NCBI GenBank assembly: GCA_035625205.1
Contig: DASPQB010000113.1
Span: forward strand, 13,078 to 77,077
DNA length: 64,000 bases
From: Nitrospirota bacterium
GTDB taxonomy: Bacteria > Nitrospirota > UBA9217
Direction: 5' to 3'
Every line of letters begins with the position of its first letter. Within the stretch, counting starts at the first letter, position 1. The notes beneath the pieces were generated by a model. It was not told the origin of the DNA and made no database searches. It worked only from the letters and a program-made list of their open reading frames with translations. Positions 37,478 through 50,237 of the stretch are shown here, one piece after another. A program made the position numbers and the translations under genes.

Positions 37478-40400
37478 ATGTTTAAGTCTCTCATAGCATT
37501 TTGCCTGAGCCGCCGAGCGATTGTGGTTGCCGCGCTGATACTATTTGCCGGCGCTGCGTTTCTCGCGTATCAAAAGCTCAACATCGAGGCCTATCCGAAT
37601 CCAGCACCGGTCATCCTGGAGATTACCGCGCAGGCGCCAGGCCTGTCTGCCGAGGAGATGGAGAAGTACTACTCGCGCCCAATCGAAATCGGGCTCTACA
37701 CGACTCCCGGCATTGCTGTCATCCGCTCCACTTCGTTTTACGGCCTGTCTTTTGTCCGTGTCGTTTTTCACTATGGGGTGGATTATCACTTCGCTTACAG
37801 CCAGGCGGCCATCGCGCTGCAACAAAATGTCAGTCTTCCGGGCAATCTGGTGCCCACCATTCAACAGAACAGCGGGACCGGGGAAATCTTTCGTTACCAG
37901 GTGGTGGGCCCGAAGCATTTCGGAATAGCCAACCTCCGCACCATTCAGGACTGGATCGTAGCGCGCCGGTTATTGACCATTCCCGGCATCGTTGCGGTCA
38001 ACAGTTGGGGCGGTCCAACAAAGCAATTCGAGGTAGAAGCTGATCCCCGCAAATTGGAGGCGTACAACGTCACGGTGCCCCAAATCCTGACCGCGCTGGG
38101 CAACGCTAACATCAATGTGGGCGGAAGAGAAATCCGCATCGGCCAGCAATCAATCAACATCCGTGGCGTCGGCCTGATTGACGACGGTGGCAATGATGAT
38201 TTGACCCAAGGCTTCAAGGTTGGTGACATTGAAAACGTTGTCCTGACTCAGTCGAACGGGGTTCCTGTACAGGTAAAGGATGTTGCGAAGGTGCACGTAG
38301 GCAATAGGCCGAGGCTTGGAATCTGGGGCCACGACCTGGAGGACGACGGGGTGGCGGCGATTGTTGTCATGAGCCGCGTCGAACGCGCTCATGACATGCT
38401 GCCTAAGGTCAGAGCTGAAATTGACACGATGAATCACGATGGAAGCCTGCCGCCGGGAGTCAAGCTTGTCCCCTTTTATGATCGAGGATCGCTGATCAAC
38501 GTCACGACCCGCACCGTGTTGCACAACCTCATCTTCGGATGCCTTCTTGTCCTCTTCATTCAATGGATTTTCCTCGGCAATTTCCGCAGCGCGATCATCG
38601 TCGGACTGAACATCCCCTTTGCGCTTTTTTTCGCAATCATTCTCCTCGTGATTCAAGGCGAAAGCGCGAACCTGCTTTCGGTCGGTGCCATTGATTTCGG
38701 CATCATCGTGGATTCAGCGGTGATACTTGTCGAGAATATCTTCCGCACTTCCCAAGGGCGCCCGGAGGAAAGACAGGGTATGCTCCAAAATCTTGCCGAA
38801 GGCTTTTGGGGGCCGGACCCGACGAAAATCTCACTGCATACGACTTCGGCCCACGCATGGACAGATCGCTTGCGGCTTATTCTGGTCAGCGCGATACAAG
38901 TGGACAAGGCGGTTTTTTTCTCAACCTTGATCACCGTGGCAGCCTTCGTACCGCTTTTTACGATGCAGGGAGTCGAGGGAGCGATATTCGGCCCCATGGC
39001 GCGCACCTACGGGTACGCATTGGCGGGCGCCTTGATCGCAACGTTCACCGTCACGCCTGTCCTTGCGTCCTTGCTGCTCCCCGAGCGTGTGAAGGAAACC
39101 GAGACCATCTTCGTCCGCGCGCTACACCGCCTGTATGACCCGGCGCTGCGTTTCGCCCTCGCCCACCGCGCGATCATGGTGATGATTGGAATTGCTTTTA
39201 TCGCCGTGGCCGGATTTCTGATACCGCGTCTCGGAAGCGAATTCCTGCCTCACCTCGAAGAAGGCAATTTTTGGATACGCGCTTCCATGCCGATGACACT
39301 TTCGCTGGAAGACGGCGAGGCAGCGACAAAAAAAATGCGGGCGGTTCTCCTGAGATTTCCAGAGGTCACTACCGTGACGTCTCAACACGGCCGGCCGGAT
39401 GACGGCAGCGACGCGGCACCATTTTCCAACGTCGAGCTGTTCGCGGTACTCAAGCCGCCCGACCAATGGCGCACTGGCATGAACAAGGAAAAACTGACCG
39501 AACAGATCAACGCGGATCTTGAGCACGAGCTGCCCGGGGTCTTCTTCAACTTCTCTCAGTATATCCAGGATAACGTCGAGGAGGCCATTTCAGGCGTTAA
39601 AGCCGACAATTCTGTCAAGATCGTAGGCCCCAATCTCGAAACATTGACCAACCTGGCCGAGCAGGTAAGGGACCAGATGAGCAAGGTACGCGGTATTGCC
39701 GACCTCGGTATTTTCCCTGTCCTCGGTCAGCCGAATCTGAACATCAAGGTAGACCGCGCCAAAGCCGCGAGGTATGGCCTGAATACCGGTGACATCAACA
39801 CGGTCATTCAAGCAGCGCTGGGCGGTACGGTAGCGACATCGGTATTGGAGGGGGACCGCCAGTTCGACCTGGTTGTCCGCTACCCTCCCGCATACCGTGA
39901 CAGCATAGAGAGAATCCGCAACGTGAAGGTGGCCTATCAAACAGGGAGCGGCGCCAATGCTTACCTTCCCTTGCGTGAACTGGCAACGATCACGTTGGAT
40001 ACGGGAGCGGCCTGGATTTATCACGAGAGCATGCAGCGCTTCATCCCGGTCAAGTTCAGTGTGCGCGGTCGCGACCTCGGTGGCACTGTTGCCGAAGCAC
40101 AGGAGCGCATCGCGCAAAACGTGAAACTTCCGAGCGGCTATCGACTAATCTGGGCAGGCGAGTTCGGAGATCTGCAGCACGCTAAAAGGCGCTTGGAAGT
40201 AATCGTGCCGATCAGCCTCGTGCTCATCCTGGGGTTGCTCTACGCCACGTTCAATTCGCTCCGCGACAGTCTGATGGCGCTCGCAGGAATCCCCTTCGCG
40301 GTTGCCGGCGGTATATTGGCACTCTACATCTCCGGTCTTAATTTCAGCATCTCCGCCGCCGTTGGTTTTGTATCACTCTTTGGGGTATCAGTCATGAACG

Positions 40401-40702
40401 GCATCCTGATGATTACCTATTACAACCAGGAAAGGCTTCGCGGAGGCAGGCCTCTTGAAGCGATGAACCACGCCGCCTCAACCCGTATGCGGCCGCTACT
40501 CATGACGAGTCTCTCCGCCTGCATCGGCCTCTTCCCTGCAGCGATTTCGACCGGGATCGGAAGCCAGGTGCAGCGACCGCTTGCCACCGTGATCGTAGGC
40601 GGCATGTTTATCGGTCCAATCATCCTGCTGGTAGTTGTGCCGCCGCTACAAATGCTCTTCCTGGGGAAAAAGCATGAAACGACAAAGATAACTGCCGAGT
40701 AA
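37478..40702 (+). CDS. Heavy-metal-efflux (HME) RND permease, CzcA/CusA family.
   Basis: The 1074-aa N-terminus MFKSLIAFCLSRRAIVVAALILFAGAAFLAYQKLNIEAYPNPAPVILEITAQAPGLSAEEMEKYYSRPIEIGL is typical CzcA-family. 12 TM segments and two large periplasmic loops. Confidence 0.93.
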   Translation: MFKSLIAFCLSRRAIVVAALILFAGAAFLAYQKLNIEAYPNPAPVILEITAQAPGLSAEEMEKYYSRPIEIGLYTTPGIAVIRSTSFYGLSFVRVVFHYGVDYHFAYSQAAIALQQNVSLPGNLVPTIQQNSGTGEIFRYQVVGPKHFGIANLRTIQDWIVARRLLTIPGIVAVNSWGGPTKQFEVEADPRKLEAYNVTVPQILTALGNANINVGGREIRIGQQSINIRGVGLIDDGGNDDLTQGFKVGDIENVVLTQSNGVPVQVKDVAKVHVGNRPRLGIWGHDLEDDGVAAIVVMSRVERAHDMLPKVRAEIDTMNHDGSLPPGVKLVPFYDRGSLINVTTRTVLHNLIFGCLLVLFIQWIFLGNFRSAIIVGLNIPFALFFAIILLVIQGESANLLSVGAIDFGIIVDSAVILVENIFRTSQGRPEERQGMLQNLAEGFWGPDPTKISLHTTSAHAWTDRLRLILVSAIQVDKAVFFSTLITVAAFVPLFTMQGVEGAIFGPMARTYGYALAGALIATFTVTPVLASLLLPERVKETETIFVRALHRLYDPALRFALAHRAIMVMIGIAFIAVAGFLIPRLGSEFLPHLEEGNFWIRASMPMTLSLEDGEAATKKMRAVLLRFPEVTTVTSQHGRPDDGSDAAPFSNVELFAVLKPPDQWRTGMNKEKLTEQINADLEHELPGVFFNFSQYIQDNVEEAISGVKADNSVKIVGPNLETLTNLAEQVRDQMSKVRGIADLGIFPVLGQPNLNIKVDRAKAARYGLNTGDINTVIQAALGGTVATSVLEGDRQFDLVVRYPPAYRDSIERIRNVKVAYQTGSGANAYLPLRELATITLDTGAAWIYHESMQRFIPVKFSVRGRDLGGTVAEAQERIAQNVKLPSGYRLIWAGEFGDLQHAKRRLEVIVPISLVLILGLLYATFNSLRDSLMALAGIPFAVAGGILALYISGLNFSISAAVGFVSLFGVSVMNGILMITYYNQERLRGGRPLEAMNHAASTRMRPLLMTSLSACIGLFPAAISTGIGSQVQRPLATVIVGGMFIGPIILLVVVPPLQMLFLGKKHETTKITAE

Positions 40703-41006: not shown

Positions 41007-42515
41007 ATGTCCTCAAAACGCTTCCACTTCATCGCTGCAACGTTGTCAATTGTTGCCCTCGTCTCAGGCTGCGCCGTGGGTCCGAACTTCCATCGCCCAG
41101 CGCCGCCCGCGATTAACGGGTATACGCCTGAGCCGCTGACTGCTACGACTTCTACCGCCAACGTAGCTGGCGGAGAGGAACAATGCTTTGTCATGGGTAT
41201 GGACATTCCTAAACAGTGGTGGGTATTATTCAAGTCGCCGCCGCTCAATGCGCTGGTGGAAAAATCGCTCAAGACCAACCCAACGATCGAGGCAGCGAAG
41301 GCAGCCTTGCGCCAGGCCCGGGAAAACGTCGCCGCCCAGGTGGGCTCTTACTATCCCGCCGTCCAGGCCGGTTATTCAGCCAGCCGCACGAAGGACTCGG
41401 GCACCATTTCGCCCGTGCTGTTTTCGGGCCAGGAACCTTACACGCTCCATACCGCTCAGGTGAGTGTGGGCTTTGCGCCAGACGTGTTCGGCGGCAACCG
41501 GCGGCAGGTAGAGTCTCTGACTGCCCAGGCCGATTTCCAGCGCTTCCAGCTCGAGGCGACTTATCTCACGCTGACGTCGAATGTGGTGGCTGCGGCCATC
41601 CAGGAGGCTTCGTTACGAGCTCAGATTTCCTCAACGCAGAGCATTATCAAGATCGAGACTGAGATGCTCGACCAGCTGCACCAGCAGTTCAAAGTCGGTT
41701 ATGCTGCTGGGCTGGATGTGGCTGCGCAGGAAGCTGCCCTTGCCCAGGTGCAGCAGACCTTGCCGCCATTACAAAAGCAGCTAGCGCAAACTCGCGATCT
41801 GCTTGTGGCTCTTGCCGGCCGCTTTCCAAATGAGGAGTTGGAAGAGAAGTTCGAGCTTGCGGCGCTCAGCCTTCCGCAGGAGCTGCCGGTGAGCCTCCCC
41901 TCCAAGCTTGTGGAACAGCGTCCGGACGTGCGCGCTGCCGAAGAGCAGGTGCATTCCTCCAGCGCCCAGGTCGGTGTGGCGGTCGCCGCCATGCTGCCGA
42001 ATATTACCCTGAGCGCCGATTTGGGAAGTACCGCTACCGCGATCAGCCATTTATTTACCCCCGGAAACGGTTTCTGGAGCCTGGCCGGTGATCTGACGCA
42101 GCCGATCTTTCAGGGGGGCACCTTGCTGCACAGGAAACGGGCTGCTGAAGCAGGCCTGGATCAGGCTCAGGCTGAGTATCGTAACACGGTGATCGCCGCC
42201 TTCCAAAACGTGGCGGACACACTCCATGCGATCCAATCCGATGCCGATGCCCTGAAGGCAGCAGTGGCTTTCCAACAGGCCGCCAAACGAAGCCTCGACC
42301 TAGCACAGAAGCAGTTCGAAGTCGGCTACGTCAATTATTTATCGTTGCTCGCCGCCGAACAGGCGTATCATCAGGCAGTTATCAATCTTGTACAGGCTAA
42401 GGCTAATCGTTTTGCCGACACTGCAGCATTATTTATGGCGCTTGGCGGCGGCTGGTGGAACGGCCCGGACGACACATCTGCGCCAACGGCATCAGAGGCT
42501 TCCGGTCGCCGTTGA
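41007..42515 (+). CDS. Outer-membrane efflux factor lipoprotein (NodT/TolC family, CzcC-like).
   Basis: Lipobox LVSGCAV. Two TolC-like repeat halves. 502 aa. Confidence 0.88.
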   Translation: MSSKRFHFIAATLSIVALVSGCAVGPNFHRPAPPAINGYTPEPLTATTSTANVAGGEEQCFVMGMDIPKQWWVLFKSPPLNALVEKSLKTNPTIEAAKAALRQARENVAAQVGSYYPAVQAGYSASRTKDSGTISPVLFSGQEPYTLHTAQVSVGFAPDVFGGNRRQVESLTAQADFQRFQLEATYLTLTSNVVAAAIQEASLRAQISSTQSIIKIETEMLDQLHQQFKVGYAAGLDVAAQEAALAQVQQTLPPLQKQLAQTRDLLVALAGRFPNEELEEKFELAALSLPQELPVSLPSKLVEQRPDVRAAEEQVHSSSAQVGVAVAAMLPNITLSADLGSTATAISHLFTPGNGFWSLAGDLTQPIFQGGTLLHRKRAAEAGLDQAQAEYRNTVIAAFQNVADTLHAIQSDADALKAAVAFQQAAKRSLDLAQKQFEVGYVNYLSLLAAEQAYHQAVINLVQAKANRFADTAALFMALGGGWWNGPDDTSAPTASEASGRR

Positions 42516-43185: not shown

Positions 43186-44922
43186 GTGGAGCACCACGCC
43201 GAGGTTATAAGGGGTGGGGTGTGGCATCAGCGGATTCCCAGTTGGCGGGATCTGATAGTGATCGTATTAGTGCTGGCAATCGTGATCCTCATCGGAGTTG
43301 GAACCCGCCAGATGGTCGCGCCCCTGCTGGTTGCGCAGCAACCGGAGATCACGCTCTCGCCGAAGGTCTTGCCGCTCTTTGCCCTGCGCACGACGATGCG
43401 AATGCTTGCGGCACTTGCTGCGTCTCTGATCTTTACCTTCACATACGCCACACTGGCCGCCAAGAGTCGCCGGGCCGAGATAGTGCTCCTCCCGCTCCTC
43501 GATGTGCTCCAGTCGGTGCCAATACTCGGATATCTCTCCTTCACGGTTGTCTTTTTCGTGTCGCTGTTTCCCCACAGCATGCTCGGGATGGAGCTCGCTG
43601 CCATCTTCGCGATCTTCACCAGTCAGGCATGGAACATGGCGTTCAGCTTCTACCAATCCCTGAGAACGATTCCGCGTGATCTCGATGAGGCAAGCCGCAG
43701 CTTCCGGCATTCGGGCTGGCAGCGATTCTGGCGTCTCGAGGTGCCGTTTGCGATGCCAGGTCTTATCTGGAACATGATGATGTCCATGTCGGGGGGATGG
43801 TTTTTCGTCGTGGCTTCCGAAGCCATCTCGGTAGGGAACACCCAATTCACGTTGCCTGGCATCGGGTCTTATGTCGCGCGCGCAATCCAAGATCGCGATC
43901 TTGCCGCCGTGGGATGGGCAATCATCGCGATGACCCTGACGATTCTCATCTACGATCAACTGCTCTTCCGTCCTCTGGTGGCCTGGGCGGAGAAGTTCCG
44001 GTTTGAGCAGACCGCAGCTCAGATCGTACCAAGGAGCTGGGTACTCGAGCTGGTTCGCCGAACGAAGCTGCTGAGATTCATCGGGGAACCGGTCGGGACA
44101 GGGATACAGTTCGTGGGACGGGCACGGCTCGTGCTCCCTTCAGCCGTGCGTCGCCTCCATCGCTGGTCACCCTCTCGTGGCGTCGTTGATGTCGCCTGGT
44201 ATGGGTTCATCCTGGCTGCCATCGGCTATGGCGTTTGGGCCCTGATGCAGTTCGCGGGGACCAAATTGTCCTGGGGCGATGTCGCAATCGCTGCGAGTAA
44301 TGGCGCTCTCACCTTACTTCGCGTCGCCATCTTAATTATTATCGCAACGGCGATCTGGGTTCCGATCGGCGTGGGCGTGGGCCTGCGACCGAAGCTGGCC
44401 GAGAAGGTCCAGCCCATCGTGCAGTTTCTCGCCGCCTTTCCAGCCAACCTACTCTTTCCCGTCGCGGTCTTCCTCATCGTGCGGTTTAACCTTGCCCCAA
44501 AGATCTGGCTGAGCCCATTGATGATTCTCGGGACGCAGTGGTACATCCTCTTCAACGTCATCGCCGGTGCGTCTGCTTTTCCAAGCGATTTCAGGGAGGC
44601 TGCCGCGAGCTTCCGCATCCGGGGCTTGCGGTGGTGGCAGGATGTGATGCTCCCCGGGATATTTCCCTATTACGTTACCGGTGCCATCACGGCGTCCGGT
44701 GGCGCCTGGAACGCAAGCATTGTCTCCGAGGCAGTCAGCTGGGGACCAACAACGCTCAGCGCCTCGGGCCTCGGCGCCTATATCGCTCAGATGTCAGCGG
44801 CAGGTGACTATCCGCGAATCGCCCTCGGCATCGTGGTCATGTCAGTGCTCGTCATCGCTATGAACAGGCTGCTTTGGCGGCCGCTCTACGCCTTCGCGGA
44901 ACGTCGGACTCGGCTCGATTAA
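43186..44922 (+). CDS. ABC transporter permease with two fused BPD-type transmembrane domains (NitT/TauT-like).
   Basis: 578 aa, about 12 TM segments. The EAA-like loop pattern appears twice (..DEASRSFRHSGWQRFWRLEVPFAMPG.. and ..REAAASFRIRGLRWWQDVMLPGIFP..). Confidence 0.85.
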   Translation: MEHHAEVIRGGVWHQRIPSWRDLIVIVLVLAIVILIGVGTRQMVAPLLVAQQPEITLSPKVLPLFALRTTMRMLAALAASLIFTFTYATLAAKSRRAEIVLLPLLDVLQSVPILGYLSFTVVFFVSLFPHSMLGMELAAIFAIFTSQAWNMAFSFYQSLRTIPRDLDEASRSFRHSGWQRFWRLEVPFAMPGLIWNMMMSMSGGWFFVVASEAISVGNTQFTLPGIGSYVARAIQDRDLAAVGWAIIAMTLTILIYDQLLFRPLVAWAEKFRFEQTAAQIVPRSWVLELVRRTKLLRFIGEPVGTGIQFVGRARLVLPSAVRRLHRWSPSRGVVDVAWYGFILAAIGYGVWALMQFAGTKLSWGDVAIAASNGALTLLRVAILIIIATAIWVPIGVGVGLRPKLAEKVQPIVQFLAAFPANLLFPVAVFLIVRFNLAPKIWLSPLMILGTQWYILFNVIAGASAFPSDFREAAASFRIRGLRWWQDVMLPGIFPYYVTGAITASGGAWNASIVSEAVSWGPTTLSASGLGAYIAQMSAAGDYPRIALGIVVMSVLVIAMNRLLWRPLYAFAERRTRLD

Positions 44923-44931
44923 GAGGCTTTA

Positions 44932-46239
44932 ATGGACATCCAGTCGGACAACGTCATACTCAACCTCCACAACATCTGTATGGCTTTCGCCAAGCCTTCC
45001 GGCGAGCTCCTGCCGGTGCTGGCCGACATCGACGTATCGTTGCTTAAAGGCGAGATCCTCGGTCTGCTCGGACGCTCGGGTGCGGGGAAGTCGACCTTAC
45101 TGCGCATCGCCGGAGGGCTCATCAAGCCGACGTCAGGCGACGTTACTTACCAGGGAGCACCGCTAAGCGGCCCCGCAGAAGGTATCGCAGTCGTGTTCCA
45201 AACCTTCGCACTCTTTCCCTGGCTTACCGTGCTCGAGAATGTCGAGGTTGGCCTCGATGCGCTTGGACAGACTCGTGAAGAAGCCCGCCGTCGGGCGCTT
45301 TCTGCCATCGACCTCATCGGGCTTGATGGCTTTCAATCAGCCTACCCACGCGAGCTGTCGGGCGGAATGCGCCAACGAGTAGGTTTTGCAAGGGCGATTG
45401 TCATTGATCCAACCGTGCTCCTCATGGACGAGCCCTTTTCCGCGCTTGACGTTCTGACCGCCGAAACCTTGCGCACCGAGTTCCTCGATCTCTGGATAGA
45501 GCATAAGCTGCCGACGAAAGCAGTATTTTTGGTCACCCACAACATCGAAGAAGCAGTATTTATGTGCGACCGGATCTTGGTTCTCTCCTCGAATCCCGGG
45601 CGCATCGCGGAAGATATTCCCGTACTGCTCCCGCATCCGCGCAATCGGCTGGATGAAGCATTTCACGAAATGGTTGATGAAATCTATTCGACGCTCACCT
45701 CTCGATCGATCGCGTCTATCGGGGCGCACGGCCAGGTTCACGGAGGCTTGATGCAGCCTCTTCCTCGGGTTTCAGTGAATCAGATCAGCGGCCTCATCGA
45801 AACGCTGCTTACACCAACTTACGCCGAGCATGCTGACCTGGCCAAAATCGCTGGATCTCTGGTTCTCGAAGTAGACGACCTTTTCCCGATCGCGGAGGCT
45901 CTCCACATCCTGGAGTTTGCCGAGCTTAAAGAAGGCACTCTCAAGCTGACTGCAGCAGGCCGGCTATTCGCAGAGAGCAGTACGGAGGAGCGCAAGCGGC
46001 TGTTTAACGAGCACCTGCTCCAGTTCGTGCCTCTCGCCGCCCACATCTACCATGTCCTGAGCGAGCGTGAAGGCCATATCGCGCCGCGGGTAAGATTCGA
46101 GGCTGAACTCGAGGATCATTTGAGCCGGCGTGATGCGGAAAAGACGCTCCGGACAGCTATTGACTGGGGACGGTACGCCGAGCTTTATGACTATGATGAT
46201 AAGTCACGGAGATTCACGACCATTCGCCCCACCGAATGA
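44932..46239 (+). CDS. ABC transporter ATP-binding protein with a C-terminal extension of about 170 aa (AAA-associated-like), NitT/TauT family.
   Basis: Walker A GRSGAGKST. Signature LSGGMRQRV. Walker B LLMDEP. H-loop THN. No substrate-binding-protein gene is adjacent. Confidence 0.9.
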   Translation: MDIQSDNVILNLHNICMAFAKPSGELLPVLADIDVSLLKGEILGLLGRSGAGKSTLLRIAGGLIKPTSGDVTYQGAPLSGPAEGIAVVFQTFALFPWLTVLENVEVGLDALGQTREEARRRALSAIDLIGLDGFQSAYPRELSGGMRQRVGFARAIVIDPTVLLMDEPFSALDVLTAETLRTEFLDLWIEHKLPTKAVFLVTHNIEEAVFMCDRILVLSSNPGRIAEDIPVLLPHPRNRLDEAFHEMVDEIYSTLTSRSIASIGAHGQVHGGLMQPLPRVSVNQISGLIETLLTPTYAEHADLAKIAGSLVLEVDDLFPIAEALHILEFAELKEGTLKLTAAGRLFAESSTEERKRLFNEHLLQFVPLAAHIYHVLSEREGHIAPRVRFEAELEDHLSRRDAEKTLRTAIDWGRYAELYDYDDKSRRFTTIRPTE

Positions 46240-46322
46240 GCGGCGCATACCAGGTATAAAGAAGATCGGAAAATTAACGCCATTGCCAACTTTCATGCGG
46301 GATTCAGGTTTAATCCACATTA

Positions 46323-46811
46323 TCATTGCGAGTTTCCAGGTGACAGTTTGCTCACAGAATTATGATGATCCTGCACATCAGCGATAATTGCGTCGAGGTT
46401 GAATTTATGCCAATCCAACATAGCGGAGTGCAGGGATGACCGGGCATCACTCAAAGCTCTGGCTCTTGCGGTGCCTTCAAGAGGATGATAAAGCTTTGGG
46501 TTCGCCTCAAGAAGGACTTTGCTCTCACTCAGTAAAAATAAGAAAGCCTTCGCTTTTTGCGGCACATAGGGGAAGACTCCCATCCGCACATTGTGGCACC
46601 ACTTACACACGGCCGTGGTCGTATCGGATGTTAGAATACTGGTAACCATCGAACCGTGGCGGGTTACGCATTCAGGGCCCTTTCCCGCTGATTCAGGCAT
46701 CTTGTAATGGAGGCTCTGGGTAAATTTATAGACTCTGCCCCATGGCATTTGCCGCAGGTTGACGGGATGTTCCTGAGGACACTCTACTTGATAAAACGTT
46801 GAACAGAGCAA
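46323..46811 (-). CDS. Doubtful 162-aa ORF containing a CxxCH motif.
   Basis: ORF track only. The sequence ...TAVCKWCHNVRMG... could be a haem-binding site, but there is no signal peptide and no RBS. The region may be non-coding. Confidence 0.2.
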   Translation of the reverse strand: MLCSTFYQVECPQEHPVNLRQMPWGRVYKFTQSLHYKMPESAGKGPECVTRHGSMVTSILTSDTTTAVCKWCHNVRMGVFPYVPQKAKAFLFLLSESKVLLEANPKLYHPLEGTARARALSDARSSLHSAMLDWHKFNLDAIIADVQDHHNSVSKLSPGNSQ

Positions 46812-47090
46812 TTAATGTATGTCAACTAGTTAAGGAGACGATGTGGACGTGACCCCAGTGTTTTAAATATTGTTTGTTAATGACAGAACTCAAATACCGA
46901 TAGCTCATTAAGTTAAGGTAATATTCACCTACATAAGATTTTTTTGTACACTCGAAGCTTTTTCCCTCTCCTTCATCACCGTTGTAAAACCCTTGACGAA
47001 ACTAAGCCTATTGTGCAATACTTTTTCCATGTCCTCACCGCATTTTACAGGAAAAGGAATCTATTACATTGAGGGTGGGGTGCTCCGCCC

Positions 47091-48206
47091 ATGAATTTCC
47101 GTTTGCTAGCAGGGTTATTCATTGTCCTTCTGTTCATCAAACCCGCCCATGCCACCCAATCCACCATCACCGAAGCAGACGGCTATTCCTGCATGGGAGA
47201 CGACAAATCCCGAAAACAGACGGAGCAGGCCGCGATGATTGATGCGAAAAAAAATGCTGCAGAGTATACATCGACGTATATCAAAAGTGAAACTCAGGTA
47301 AAAGATTTTGCGCTCCAAAAAGACCTTGTCTCGGCCTACACCAACGCCGAAGTGAAAGTCATTGAAGATCTTGAAAAAGGATGGTATAAAGACCCCTCCT
47401 CCGGGGCTTGCTATAAAATAAAGATTAAGGCTGAGGTAACCCCTGACGAAAAGGCAATGGAAAAGCTATCCCAGGCCACTGCTGGTACGACTGACCAGGG
47501 GAATATCTATCTTCCTGTTGCTCCGCCTCCGGTATTTGGTATTGGACCATCTTCACAGACGGAAGTCGCCGCTCCTGATGTTGTGGTGATTCCTAGTGGA
47601 GAAACATATGTGTACATGGTGCCGAACACGACGGGGGTTTACTTTTACAGTGACTATTGGTATCGGTATTATGAAGGTTATTGGTTCCGGTCGCCTATCT
47701 ATGCAGGAAAGTGGGGAATGGTTACTCCAACCATGGTTCCTCGCGAGGTAGCGAACGTGCCGCCCGAATACCCTCACTATCTACCGCCCGATTATTACAG
47801 AATTCATTACAATGATCTCCACCAGCACTGGCAAGAATGGGACCACAACCACGAGTGGCACAACCGTGACTGGTACAAGACGGAAATGAAACCTGATGTC
47901 ATAGCTCACAGGCAAGCTCTCGTCAACCAGGAGCGAGAGCAGCATCGCATAGCGATAGAACGAAAACACCAGGAAGCTAAGCAACAGCTCCAGCAGCAAG
48001 AGCAGCAACGCATCCATATAGAACGCGAACATCAAGGGGTAACGCGTCTGACACAGCAGCAAGAACAGAACCGCTTACAAAAGGATCACAAGAGCCAAAG
48101 TGCACAGCGACAGATGCAGCAAGATCGTAAAACTAAGCATCAAGGCAAAGGAAAGGGCAAGAAAAAGAAAAAAGGCAAGCGACAAAAAAAGGATAAGCAC
48201 GAATAG
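47091..48206 (+). CDS. Secreted protein with an LPP20-like N-terminal domain, a Trp/Tyr-rich segment, a His/Trp/Gln-rich coiled region and a poly-Lys tail.
   Basis: Signal peptide MNFRLLAGLFIVLLFIKPAHA. An LPP20-like stretch GYSCMGDDKSRKQTEQAAMIDAKKNAAEYTSTYIKSETQV with a second Cys at ..GACYKIK... Then YFYSDYWYRYYEGYWFRSPIY. Then HYNDLHQHWQEWDHNHEWHNRDWY. A Q/E/R-rich repeat region. Ends ...KGKGKKKKKGKRQKKDKHE. Confidence 0.7.
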   Translation: MNFRLLAGLFIVLLFIKPAHATQSTITEADGYSCMGDDKSRKQTEQAAMIDAKKNAAEYTSTYIKSETQVKDFALQKDLVSAYTNAEVKVIEDLEKGWYKDPSSGACYKIKIKAEVTPDEKAMEKLSQATAGTTDQGNIYLPVAPPPVFGIGPSSQTEVAAPDVVVIPSGETYVYMVPNTTGVYFYSDYWYRYYEGYWFRSPIYAGKWGMVTPTMVPREVANVPPEYPHYLPPDYYRIHYNDLHQHWQEWDHNHEWHNRDWYKTEMKPDVIAHRQALVNQEREQHRIAIERKHQEAKQQLQQQEQQRIHIEREHQGVTRLTQQQEQNRLQKDHKSQSAQRQMQQDRKTKHQGKGKGKKKKKGKRQKKDKHE

Positions 48207-48789
48207 GATGCTCCTAAAACGTTAAGCCTGCGGAACGATGTCCTTGGGGCCAAAATGACCCTTGCCCTAGATGGTGTCATTGGGTGAACGATACTCCTGT
48301 AGCTGTTGAAGTTGCATATCTTTGAAACATATTAAATTATCTTCTATATATATGTTATGGCATACCGCGAACATACCTCATCGAAGTCCGTTTTATTTCT
48401 TGACAAAAAGTTGCACTCTTGTATAGTCAAAGCATCCTCGGAAATCCAACCACCTATGCACGAAACATTAGCAGTTTGAACTAAGGCAGCTGAAGACGGG
48501 CTTTCGGATTTGAACTTAAGACTGATTTTTGTGCCTTACCATAATAAACTTCATTGTCATAACTTCCTTACGTTCAGAACTCTGAATGAAATCAGCACCA
48601 TCATTTATCCTTACTCATACACCTGCGTGACCTTGTTTGATGAATACTGAATTCATGTGACCATAAGGGAAAGCAAGGGTTTTTTATTTATCTAGATATG
48701 GCTTAATAGCGGGTGAAATTATTAAGCAGAATCATTCCTGACGCCAACGAAGAGTTATTAATTCGTGCGGTCTCTAAGGAGGAAAAATT

Positions 48790-49077
48790 ATGAGTAAGCC
48801 GGAAAGCGAAGGAGTGTTGGCAGCTATTTCAAAAAATGAACGATACATACTAAGGCATTTAAAATTGTTTCAATTAGCAGGACTATGTGCTGCGCTTTTT
48901 GGGGCAGTAGGAATACTCACAGGCTTTCACAACGTTACATCTCGACCAATGGCACCCAATGAATCAGTTATTAATCGAGTTCTGATCTTTTTTTCATATA
49001 GTATCATCATGTTTGGTTGGCTTTTCTACATAATGGTTCGTCTTGTAGAAAAGCTTAAAAAACATTTTGATGTTTGA
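48790..49077 (+). CDS. Small membrane protein (2 TM), hypothetical.
   Basis: Strong RBS TAAGGAGG. 95 aa with two hydrophobic helices. Confidence 0.5.
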   Translation: MSKPESEGVLAAISKNERYILRHLKLFQLAGLCAALFGAVGILTGFHNVTSRPMAPNESVINRVLIFFSYSIIMFGWLFYIMVRLVEKLKKHFDV

Positions 49078-49111: not shown

Positions 49112-49348
49112 ATGTTGGACCAGCGGTTCAACTTGCTACAATCGGGCAATTATCGGGATTTGATTGATGCGTATAGTAAAGCAATAGAACTGAATCCGAA
49201 ATATGCGGAGGCATATTACGGTCGAAGGATTGCTTATCAGAAATTAGGAAATACTAATATGGTTATCCAAAATCTTAAGATAGCTGCGAAGTTAGGATAT
49301 AAACAAGCCCAAACCTATGTAACTTCGCAGGGAATAGAATGGCGATAA
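49112..49348 (+). CDS. Small TPR-repeat protein.
   Basis: A 78-aa ORF (..YSKAIELNPKYAEAYYGRRIAYQKLGN..) with the classic TPR consensus. Confidence 0.5.
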   Translation: MLDQRFNLLQSGNYRDLIDAYSKAIELNPKYAEAYYGRRIAYQKLGNTNMVIQNLKIAAKLGYKQAQTYVTSQGIEWR

Positions 49349-49715
49349 AACATTGCTGAGTTTGGGCTGTGTTCTCATTTCCTTGACTAAAAAGATTTCC
49401 TCGTGAGACACGACAAAAGCCCTTCAGAAACCCCGTTTCCCCGTTTTTTCAACCTCAATTTCATAACCCTGATTAGACATTAGATCTGATTCATATCGTT
49501 CCGATGAGTCCCAAAGATAATCGACTCTTCAAGCGATCGAACCATAGCACCGATCACAAATTCATTTTAAATCATTGCATTTTCTGATATAGTTTTCAAT
49601 TAGTAACTCCATCCTGAAACAATTGAGTATGCCAATCTTTGAAAAACTGTAATTTTTACACTGAATTGTGGATGATCGAAATGACGTCGTCGCCAAAAAA
49701 TACTGGGAGGCTTGC

Positions 49716-50237
49716 ATGGGAAATCTTATCAAAGGAGATATGGTTCGTCACGAACGATTCGGTATAGGCCGCATTGAGGAAACATCGGTTGGCGGGATCA
49801 AGCAGGACTGTACCGTCTACTTCCCCCGTCTGGACAAAAGCGTAGTTGCCTCGGAAGACGAACTCCAGATCCTCTCCGACACCGAAACCACTGCCTACGA
49901 AATGATGAAGCTTGCGGTATTCGAAGTCAGCCGTGAAGAGATACCGTGGACCGAGTTTGGGAACCGCTGGCAGGGAGGAGAGATGATCCTCAAGCCGGGT
50001 GATCCGAAGCTCGCGTCAAAGAGCGTTTCCATCGAAACCTTTTTTCACAAGATCGTGATGATCCGCGACCGTTTGCGGGTCATGGAAGCGCAGATCAATT
50101 CACACAAGGTCCTCACCGATGCCGAAAAGGTCGATTTGCAGCAATATATCACGCGCATTTATGGTTCACTCACCACCTTCAATATACTGTTTAAGGACAA
50201 GAGCGGCCACTTCATCGGGCAGAAGGGAGAGGCGTGA
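49716..50237 (+). CDS. Hypothetical protein.
   Basis: A GGGAGG RBS precedes ATG 49716. The translation MGNLIKGDMVRHERFGIGRIEETSVGG... is coding-like but has no family recognised. Confidence 0.5.
   Translation: MGNLIKGDMVRHERFGIGRIEETSVGGIKQDCTVYFPRLDKSVVASEDELQILSDTETTAYEMMKLAVFEVSREEIPWTEFGNRWQGGEMILKPGDPKLASKSVSIETFFHKIVMIRDRLRVMEAQINSHKVLTDAEKVDLQQYITRIYGSLTTFNILFKDKSGHFIGQKGEA

Follow-up and report, generated by a model that had tools for sequence, protein, structure and literature searches.

An open reading frame in a free-living, uncultured Nitrospirota bacterium raises the question of whether a protein of extreme composition is real and, if so, what it is built from and what it does. 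The frame lies in a stretch of DNA of 64,000 nucleotides, which is called the window here. An earlier note on this DNA, made from the sequence alone, described a secreted protein in which an LPP20/FlgP-type domain with two Cys is followed by low-complexity stretches rich in aromatic residues, His, Gln and Lys; it suggested that these might bind metal, nucleic acid or an anionic surface, and considered that they might be an artifact of assembly or annotation.

The proteins with which such a first domain invites comparison are partly understood. FlgP, Lpp20, FlgT and dodecin share an SHS2-like fold, and FlgP and FlgT sit in outer-membrane-associated rings (PMC12222027). Lpp20 and Tip-alpha are structural homologues of each other (PMC7999756). 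Much less is available for the other domains that occur in this protein and its relatives: the literature holds only passing mentions of DUF4384, in 7 papers, and our literature search found no paper on the family of the aromatic module described below.

In this study, we examine the coding reality, domain structure, relatives and genomic context of the window protein. It is near certain that the gene encodes a genuine exported protein of five modular parts. As to function, we favor, at a probability of about one half, a structural tether or scaffold of the periplasm or envelope that would be held by an electrostatic polybasic anchor and would not be an enzyme.

Results

Coding reality of the gene

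The gene, its candidate upstream signals and the parts of its product are as follows.

46993..47022, + strand: sigma-70-like promoter candidate from a consensus scan (TTGACG, 18-nt spacer, AATACT, with TG before the -10 element)
47071..47080, + strand: Shine-Dalgarno-like purine-rich stretch GAGGGTGGGG, read from the sequence, ending 10 nt before the ATG
47091..48206, + strand: complete coding sequence, 371 aa plus stop, ATG start
47091..47153, + strand: predicted type-I (Sec) signal peptide, aa 1-21, without a lipobox Cys
47154..47468, + strand: predicted SHS2-like N-terminal domain (Lpp20/Tip-alpha/FlgT/dodecin type), aa 22-126, with invariant C34 and C107
47469..47567, + strand: flexible Pro-rich linker, aa 127-159, with an invariant PVAPPP (pLDDT about 32)
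47568..47888, + strand: predicted aromatic-core domain, apparently undescribed, aa 160-266, with a six-strand beta part (aa 164-211, containing YFYSDYWYRYYEGYWF) and a helical W-x2-W-x5-W part
47889..48137, + strand: polar, Q/E/R/K/H-rich long helix predicted by AF2, aa 267-349
48138..48203, + strand: disordered polybasic (Lys-rich) C-terminal tail, aa 350-371, with 11 K and 1 R in 22 residues

The promoter candidate, a pattern match only, agrees with the consensus at 9 of 12 positions and precedes the start codon by about 70 nt, and GAGGGTGGGG may act as a Shine-Dalgarno sequence. The translated product is identical to HYA86726.1, a GenBank "hypothetical protein" from an 85-kb contig of a Nitrospirota MAG. 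The strings that had been quoted from it (aa 184-199, 239-262, 298-315 and 353-371) are all present in the frame, and so is the extreme composition that had been remarked upon. With the other window ORFs that reach 200 aa (31 in number) as background, the protein stands far outside: W plus Y reach 23 per 106 aa (background maximum 12), K reaches 11 among the final 22 aa (maximum 6), Q reaches 22 per 83 aa (maximum 14) and H reaches 6 per 24 aa (maximum 4). No paralog of either the N-terminal domain or the aromatic module occurs elsewhere in the 64-kb window.

A composition of this kind, in a gene that has long gaps on both sides and lies in a region of falling GC, might suggest that a short LPP20-like gene had been fused to non-coding DNA or to a frameshifted read-through, which would make up the C-terminal two-thirds. 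The earlier note had reasoned that homologues would then end after the first domain and leave the tail unconserved, but the opposite was found. In about 19 full-length orthologs, which come from independent assemblies and are 46-77% identical to the window protein, no segment is missing, and the module, helix and K-rich tail share one frame. Calculated segment by segment against three orthologous genes, dN/dS was below 1 throughout, at 0.03-0.05 for the N-terminal domain, 0.07-0.2 for the aromatic module, 0.26-0.42 for the helix plus Lys tail (about 0.4 for the polar helix alone) and 0.6-0.74 for the Pro linker. As judged from these ratios, purifying selection acts on all segments of the protein, and a frameshift artifact is therefore excluded. 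The confidence of the predicted module fold and the presence of the module in more than 1000 other protein clusters, both described below, likewise stand against an artifact, and together these four lines of evidence refute it, its remaining probability being negligible.

Signal peptide and N-terminal domain

The protein begins with a basic n-region, a hydrophobic core and an A-x-A motif, all of which are kept in 19/19 orthologs. The type of signal peptide was judged by rule: the signal ends in AHA, with predicted cleavage before TQ, the first Cys is residue 34, so that a lipobox is lacking, and the orthologs are all of the A-x-A, type-I class. The proposal that the protein is secreted is thus upheld as far as export goes; a type-I signal peptide predicts export across the inner membrane only, and implies no more exact location. 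Cys occurs exactly twice in the protein, as C34 and C107; the two residues lie in the N-terminal domain and are invariant among its relatives, DUF4384 paralogs included. Two invariant Cys are typical of an oxidizing compartment and were thus counted in favor of export, and C34 and C107 probably form a disulfide.

An AlphaFold model of the N-terminal domain, built on the 19-sequence alignment, has a beta-alpha-alpha-beta-beta order at a pLDDT of 75-87. The model shows a three-stranded beta-sheet with an alpha-helix across one face and resembles solved members of the SHS2-like fold class (InterPro IPR024952), with fold matches to Lpp20 (7.5), Tip-alpha (7.5), the FlgT-containing LPHT ring (7.0), dodecins (about 7), RcsF (6.8) and HP1454 (6.0). 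The core of this list coincides with the proteins to which PMC12222027 assigns an SHS2-like fold. Sequence profiles gave a different answer. In searches of the window protein against Pfam and NCBIfam, the N-terminal domain matched no curated profile, and a search of PDB sequences with a profile of the domain gave no meaningful match. LPP20 (PF02169) matched neither the whole protein nor the isolated domain, even at E<=10, and reached only 5/27 relatives of the domain (best E 0.03, all below threshold). FlgT_N (PF16548) did not match the window protein and came closer in its relatives, of which 15/27 gave matches that were again all below threshold (best E 2e-4); one of them, P0028, scored 18.4 bits, against a cut-off of 28.8, over profile positions 3-86 of 87.

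The earlier assignment to an LPP20/FlgP-type domain with two Cys therefore holds in part: the fold class, from comparison of the model with solved structures, and the two Cys are borne out, and membership of the family is not, since no profile matches. On the strength of the model, the N-terminal domain is a distant, new member of a known SHS2-like fold class, and not a member of the LPP20 family.

The differences from the solved relatives are considerable. Identity to the H. pylori proteins Lpp20 (HP1456, PDB 5ok8) and Tip-alpha (HP0596, PDB 3gio/2wcr) is only 7-14%. Lpp20 is a lipoprotein, whereas the window protein lacks a lipobox, and about 245 residues of the latter (aromatic domain, helix and Lys tail) are absent from both Lpp20 and Tip-alpha, whose host is a pathogen and not a free-living bacterium. 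A ring former of the FlgP type is also not indicated, in that the model has a helix at aa 73-84, with no hairpin, where FlgP carries its ring-forming beta-hairpin insert. In contrast to FlgP and FlgT, the window protein has neither a lipid anchor nor flagellar genes nearby.

An aromatic-core domain

The aromatic and His-rich stretches had been taken for low-complexity sequence. Instead, aa 160-266 form a single domain that is predicted to be ordered and is conserved, and its aromatic residues are an invariant scaffold. Modeled alone by AlphaFold with 101 family sequences, this module reached a pLDDT of 95.8 and a pTM of 0.87. In the model, six short strands (aa 164-211) are followed by short helices, one of which carries the W-x2-W-x5-W motif, and the stretch that had been called His-rich falls within this helical part. 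The family was defined by alignments, which give the signature P-x6-Y-x9-F-x4-W-x-R-x5-W-x9-W-x8-P ... W-x2-W-x5-W, and its invariant positions are P168, Y175, F185, W190, R192, W198, W208, P217, W247, W250 and W256. The window protein has all 11 of them, together with the signal peptide, the PVAPPP linker and a net-positive tail.

Searches of Pfam, NCBIfam and PDB found no relative of the module, in agreement with the view that no comparable architecture has been described. The lone Pfam/NCBIfam match of the whole protein, to BRICHOS, had an E-value of 2.9 and was taken as noise. A divergent DUF4384 domain was considered and rejected, as the module has no PF14326 match and hhalign gave a probability of 0.1% against proteins that combine the N-terminal domain with DUF4384; homology to the C-terminal domain of clostripain-like C11 proteases (PDB 6mzo) was likewise tested and not borne out. 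No catalytic signature was seen in the window protein with Pfam or NCBIfam. It is strongly supported, on the predicted structure, that the module is an undescribed, compact, globular domain, with no solved-structure relative detectable among the Pfam, NCBIfam and PDB entries searched.

Linker, polar helix and polybasic tail

The segments that flank the module are far more variable. Except for PVAPPP, the sequence of the Pro-rich linker varies among orthologs. In the polar segment that follows the module, composition is conserved and sequence poorly so. AF2 predicts a single helix at 268-349 with a pLDDT of 70-77; if helical throughout, the segment would span about 12 nm. The features of aa 267-349 fit neither a coiled coil of the canonical kind nor a single helix of the ER/K type: the segment is 16% hydrophobic, its best heptad a/d occupancy is 0.33, and opposite-charge pairs at i/i+3-4 number 9, with no excess over the 8.2 +/- 2.4 in shuffled sequences. 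The helix may be partly disordered. The C-terminus is K-rich in nearly all orthologs and differs among them in sequence and length.

The module family

A search of 1.84 billion cluster representatives (clusters at 50% identity) with a profile of the module returned 1176 of them at E<=1e-3, 359 at <=1e-10 and 87 at <=1e-30. A second search gave 547 proteins at E<=1e-5, and the best 120 of these are all unnamed hypotheticals without a precomputed Pfam domain. Among species-representative genomes, the module occurs only in MAGs, which belong to Nitrospirota, Thermodesulfovibrionales, Nitrospiraceae, Geobacterales, other Thermodesulfobacteriota, Syntrophorhabdales and one Planctomycetales; a tblastn search of plasmid records gave no match.

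The typical member, of 150-200 aa, consists of an export signal, often an alternating strand of the "GVNVNI" type, a Pro-rich stretch, the module and a low-complexity tail. In a sample of 100 members, a hydrophobic export signal stands at the N-terminus of 96, a lipobox is present in 15, and the tail is net-positive in 86 (median net charge +6, median length 75 aa). Such a family-wide basic tail is compatible with an anionic partner. Other tails of the family are Pro-, Gln- or Gly-rich instead of Lys-rich. Some striking architectures occur among P0129, P0130, P0162, P0194, P0214 and P0221: an FHA domain, Zn-ribbon, TM segment, module and Q/P-rich tail; two modules with a Lys/Ser/Asn-rich tail of ~250 aa; and a fourfold tandem repeat in which only the beta half of the module is present, with poly-Pro between the copies. 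A further architecture consists of a Zn-ribbon, TM segment, module and Pro-rich tail. From these arrangements, the beta half can apparently act as an independent repeat. Since members carry export signals, and since the module is placed after the TM segment where there is one, the module is consistently extracytoplasmic.

Two groups of proteins lie nearest to the window protein. The closest true sequence relatives are proteins of Nitrospirota and Thermodesulfobacteriota (P0028, for example) that join the N-terminal domain to DUF4384 (PF14326). They number in the hundreds, are also solitary genes, and share with the window protein the signal peptide and N-terminal domain, at about 60% identity, and both Cys, but are about 286 aa long, with DUF4384 following the linker. 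The stand-alone module proteins (P0143, P0121, P0275 and P0281, for example) share the module invariants, export signal, Pro-rich stretch and basic low-complexity tail, but lack the SHS2-like N-terminal domain and the long polar helix; they are mostly 150-200 aa long (~170), and all are unnamed metagenome hypotheticals. Comparison of these sequences strongly supports an origin of the window-protein lineage by domain replacement, with DUF4384 and the aromatic module as the alternatives, and not by divergence. The combination of this N-terminal domain with the aromatic module is new and would make the window protein a novel form of exported, Lpp20-like envelope protein. On a pair of related contigs (L005 and L006), the DUF4384 paralog is directly followed by a gene for a 1074-aa WD40 beta-propeller protein, which is absent at other DUF4384 loci.

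Gene neighborhood

Upstream of the gene lie an RND efflux system (AcrB-type protein at 37478-40702, outer-membrane factor at 41007-42515) and, after it, an ABC transporter, with a fused permease at 43186-44922 and an ATPase at 44932-46239 that bears a C-terminal AAA_assoc_C (PF09821). Downstream are small unknown or TPR ORFs, of which three on the same strand encode a membrane-like protein of 95 aa (48790-49077), a TPR protein of 78 aa (49112-49348) and a protein of 189 aa with no Pfam match (49668-50237); a thioesterase is also among the neighbors, and flagellar genes are not. The gene itself stands between apparently non-coding gaps of 850 bp (46240-47090) and 580 bp (48207-48789), of which the former contains a lone minus-strand ORF (46323-46811; 162 aa, no Pfam match). 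GC drops from 0.59 at 44-46 kb to 0.41 at 48-50 kb. The gaps and the falling GC may mark a small acquired islet or a regulatory region.

Elsewhere, orthologs lie in differing contexts, which are free of flagellar genes. When 330 flanking ORFs from 36 genome loci were clustered by BLAST, only generic response regulators and a synteny among four near-identical genomes emerged, and the Pfam-annotated contexts of 7 further proteins all differ. The window gene and the members of its family are solitary genes, without operon partners. At one locus (L046, 4001-5695), the gene of a typical short module protein is directly followed, in the same orientation, by genes for a BON-domain protein, for an unknown protein of 147 aa and for a Gly-zipper lipoprotein whose end is rich in His and Arg, and this gene set resembles an envelope-stress cluster; the BON/Gly-zipper association does not recur in the 36 genome loci.

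Discussion

A tether or scaffold is proposed for the window protein from architecture, location and charge only. After Sec export and cleavage of the signal peptide, the mature protein would consist of the SHS2-like domain, the Pro linker, the aromatic domain, the polar helix and the poly-Lys end, in that order. By analogy with its solved relatives, the SHS2-like domain would mediate protein-protein association near the outer membrane. The aromatic domain would serve as a second binding knob for an envelope partner; to judge from the invariant Arg set among its invariant Trp, Tyr and Phe, its ligand may be polymeric or anionic. The polar helix would act as a spacer, and the polybasic tail would provide an electrostatic hold on an anionic surface, for which phospholipid or LPS head groups, peptidoglycan-associated or extracellular polymers, and mineral are candidates. 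We give this mechanistic part perhaps one chance in three. The variable gene neighborhood gives no support to a tether.

The same tail has other conceivable uses. As a secreted protein like Tip-alpha, which is reported to bind DNA, the window protein might use its poly-Lys tail to bind the extracellular DNA of a biofilm, or an acidic exopolysaccharide. With Tip-alpha among the best fold matches of the N-terminal domain, 12 K/R in the 22 tail residues and basic tails throughout the family, this has some appeal, but Lpp20, FlgT and dodecin, none of which is a DNA binder, match the fold just as well, and the protein has a Sec signal only, with no linked secretion-system genes. The tails of other members, moreover, are rich in Pro, Gln or Gly, and binding of a polycation to DNA is therefore not the common function of the module. 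Overall, we consider a role of this kind unlikely. Still less probable is that the hydrated, charged tail protects the envelope in osmotic or desiccation stress in the manner of a hydrophilin, as the OsmY/OsmB-type neighbors at L046 might suggest. The tails are indeed long, charged and predicted to be disordered, and the short member at that locus is directly upstream of the BON-domain and Gly-zipper genes, yet such an association was found in 0/36 genome loci and the window gene has no such neighbors.

Binding of metal, which the earlier note had suggested on account of the aromatic and His-rich segments, is not supported by the conservation of those segments. If the His-rich and aromatic stretches chelated metal or bound Fe/Mn oxide, with the Lys tail aiding adsorption to the mineral, the His residues of the module (7) and of the helix (6) would be the natural ligands, and the distribution of the family in Nitrospirota, Geobacterales and other Thermodesulfobacteriota, which are lineages that handle metals and minerals, would be in keeping with this, as would its occurrence in a MAG from a Mn-oxidizing enrichment (L030). 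However, of the 15 His beyond residue 150, the 19 orthologs conserve only three, H239, H246 and H285, and the remaining 12 swap with R, K, N or Q. No His is invariant across the family, there are no Cys/Met clusters and no linked metal-handling genes, and what is conserved (W, Y, F, P and one R) is typical of a structural core or of a polymer-binding face. A metal or mineral binder is accordingly about as improbable as a stress protectant, though far less so than an artifact.

The tether or scaffold might be one instance of something wider. It is conceivable, though we advance it tentatively and at less than even odds, that the module is a new fold and that, in Nitrospirota and Thermodesulfobacteriota, it founds a large, unrecognized family of domains that serve as anchors outside the cytoplasm. 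Such a domain, always paired with a disordered and usually polycationic tail, would form a new two-part device for attachment to the envelope or surface, joined in the window protein to an Lpp20-like scaffold and in other cases to FHA/Zn-ribbon transmembrane signaling proteins.

If these conclusions are true, a domain family of more than 1000 clusters at 50% identity, whose structure is predicted with very high confidence and which has no counterpart in Pfam, NCBIfam or PDB, would merit an experimental structure and a family entry of its own. It would also represent an unstudied class of envelope protein in environmentally important, uncultured Nitrospirota, Thermodesulfovibrionales, Geobacterales and Syntrophorhabdales. 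The SHS2-like head that is joined to either DUF4384 or the module, and the module that recurs in FHA/Zn-ribbon membrane proteins, would offer a clean example of domain shuffling, which may in turn help to assign a function to DUF4384.

Further variation is seen in single members of the family. P0067 has duplicated helix-type repeats ("GLSDEVIISVI / GVSNKVIEAM") at aa 40-100, before its Pro-rich linker, with no Pfam match. A groundwater Nitrospirae MAG has a tandem pair of aromatic-module ORFs (L016, 4254-5680).
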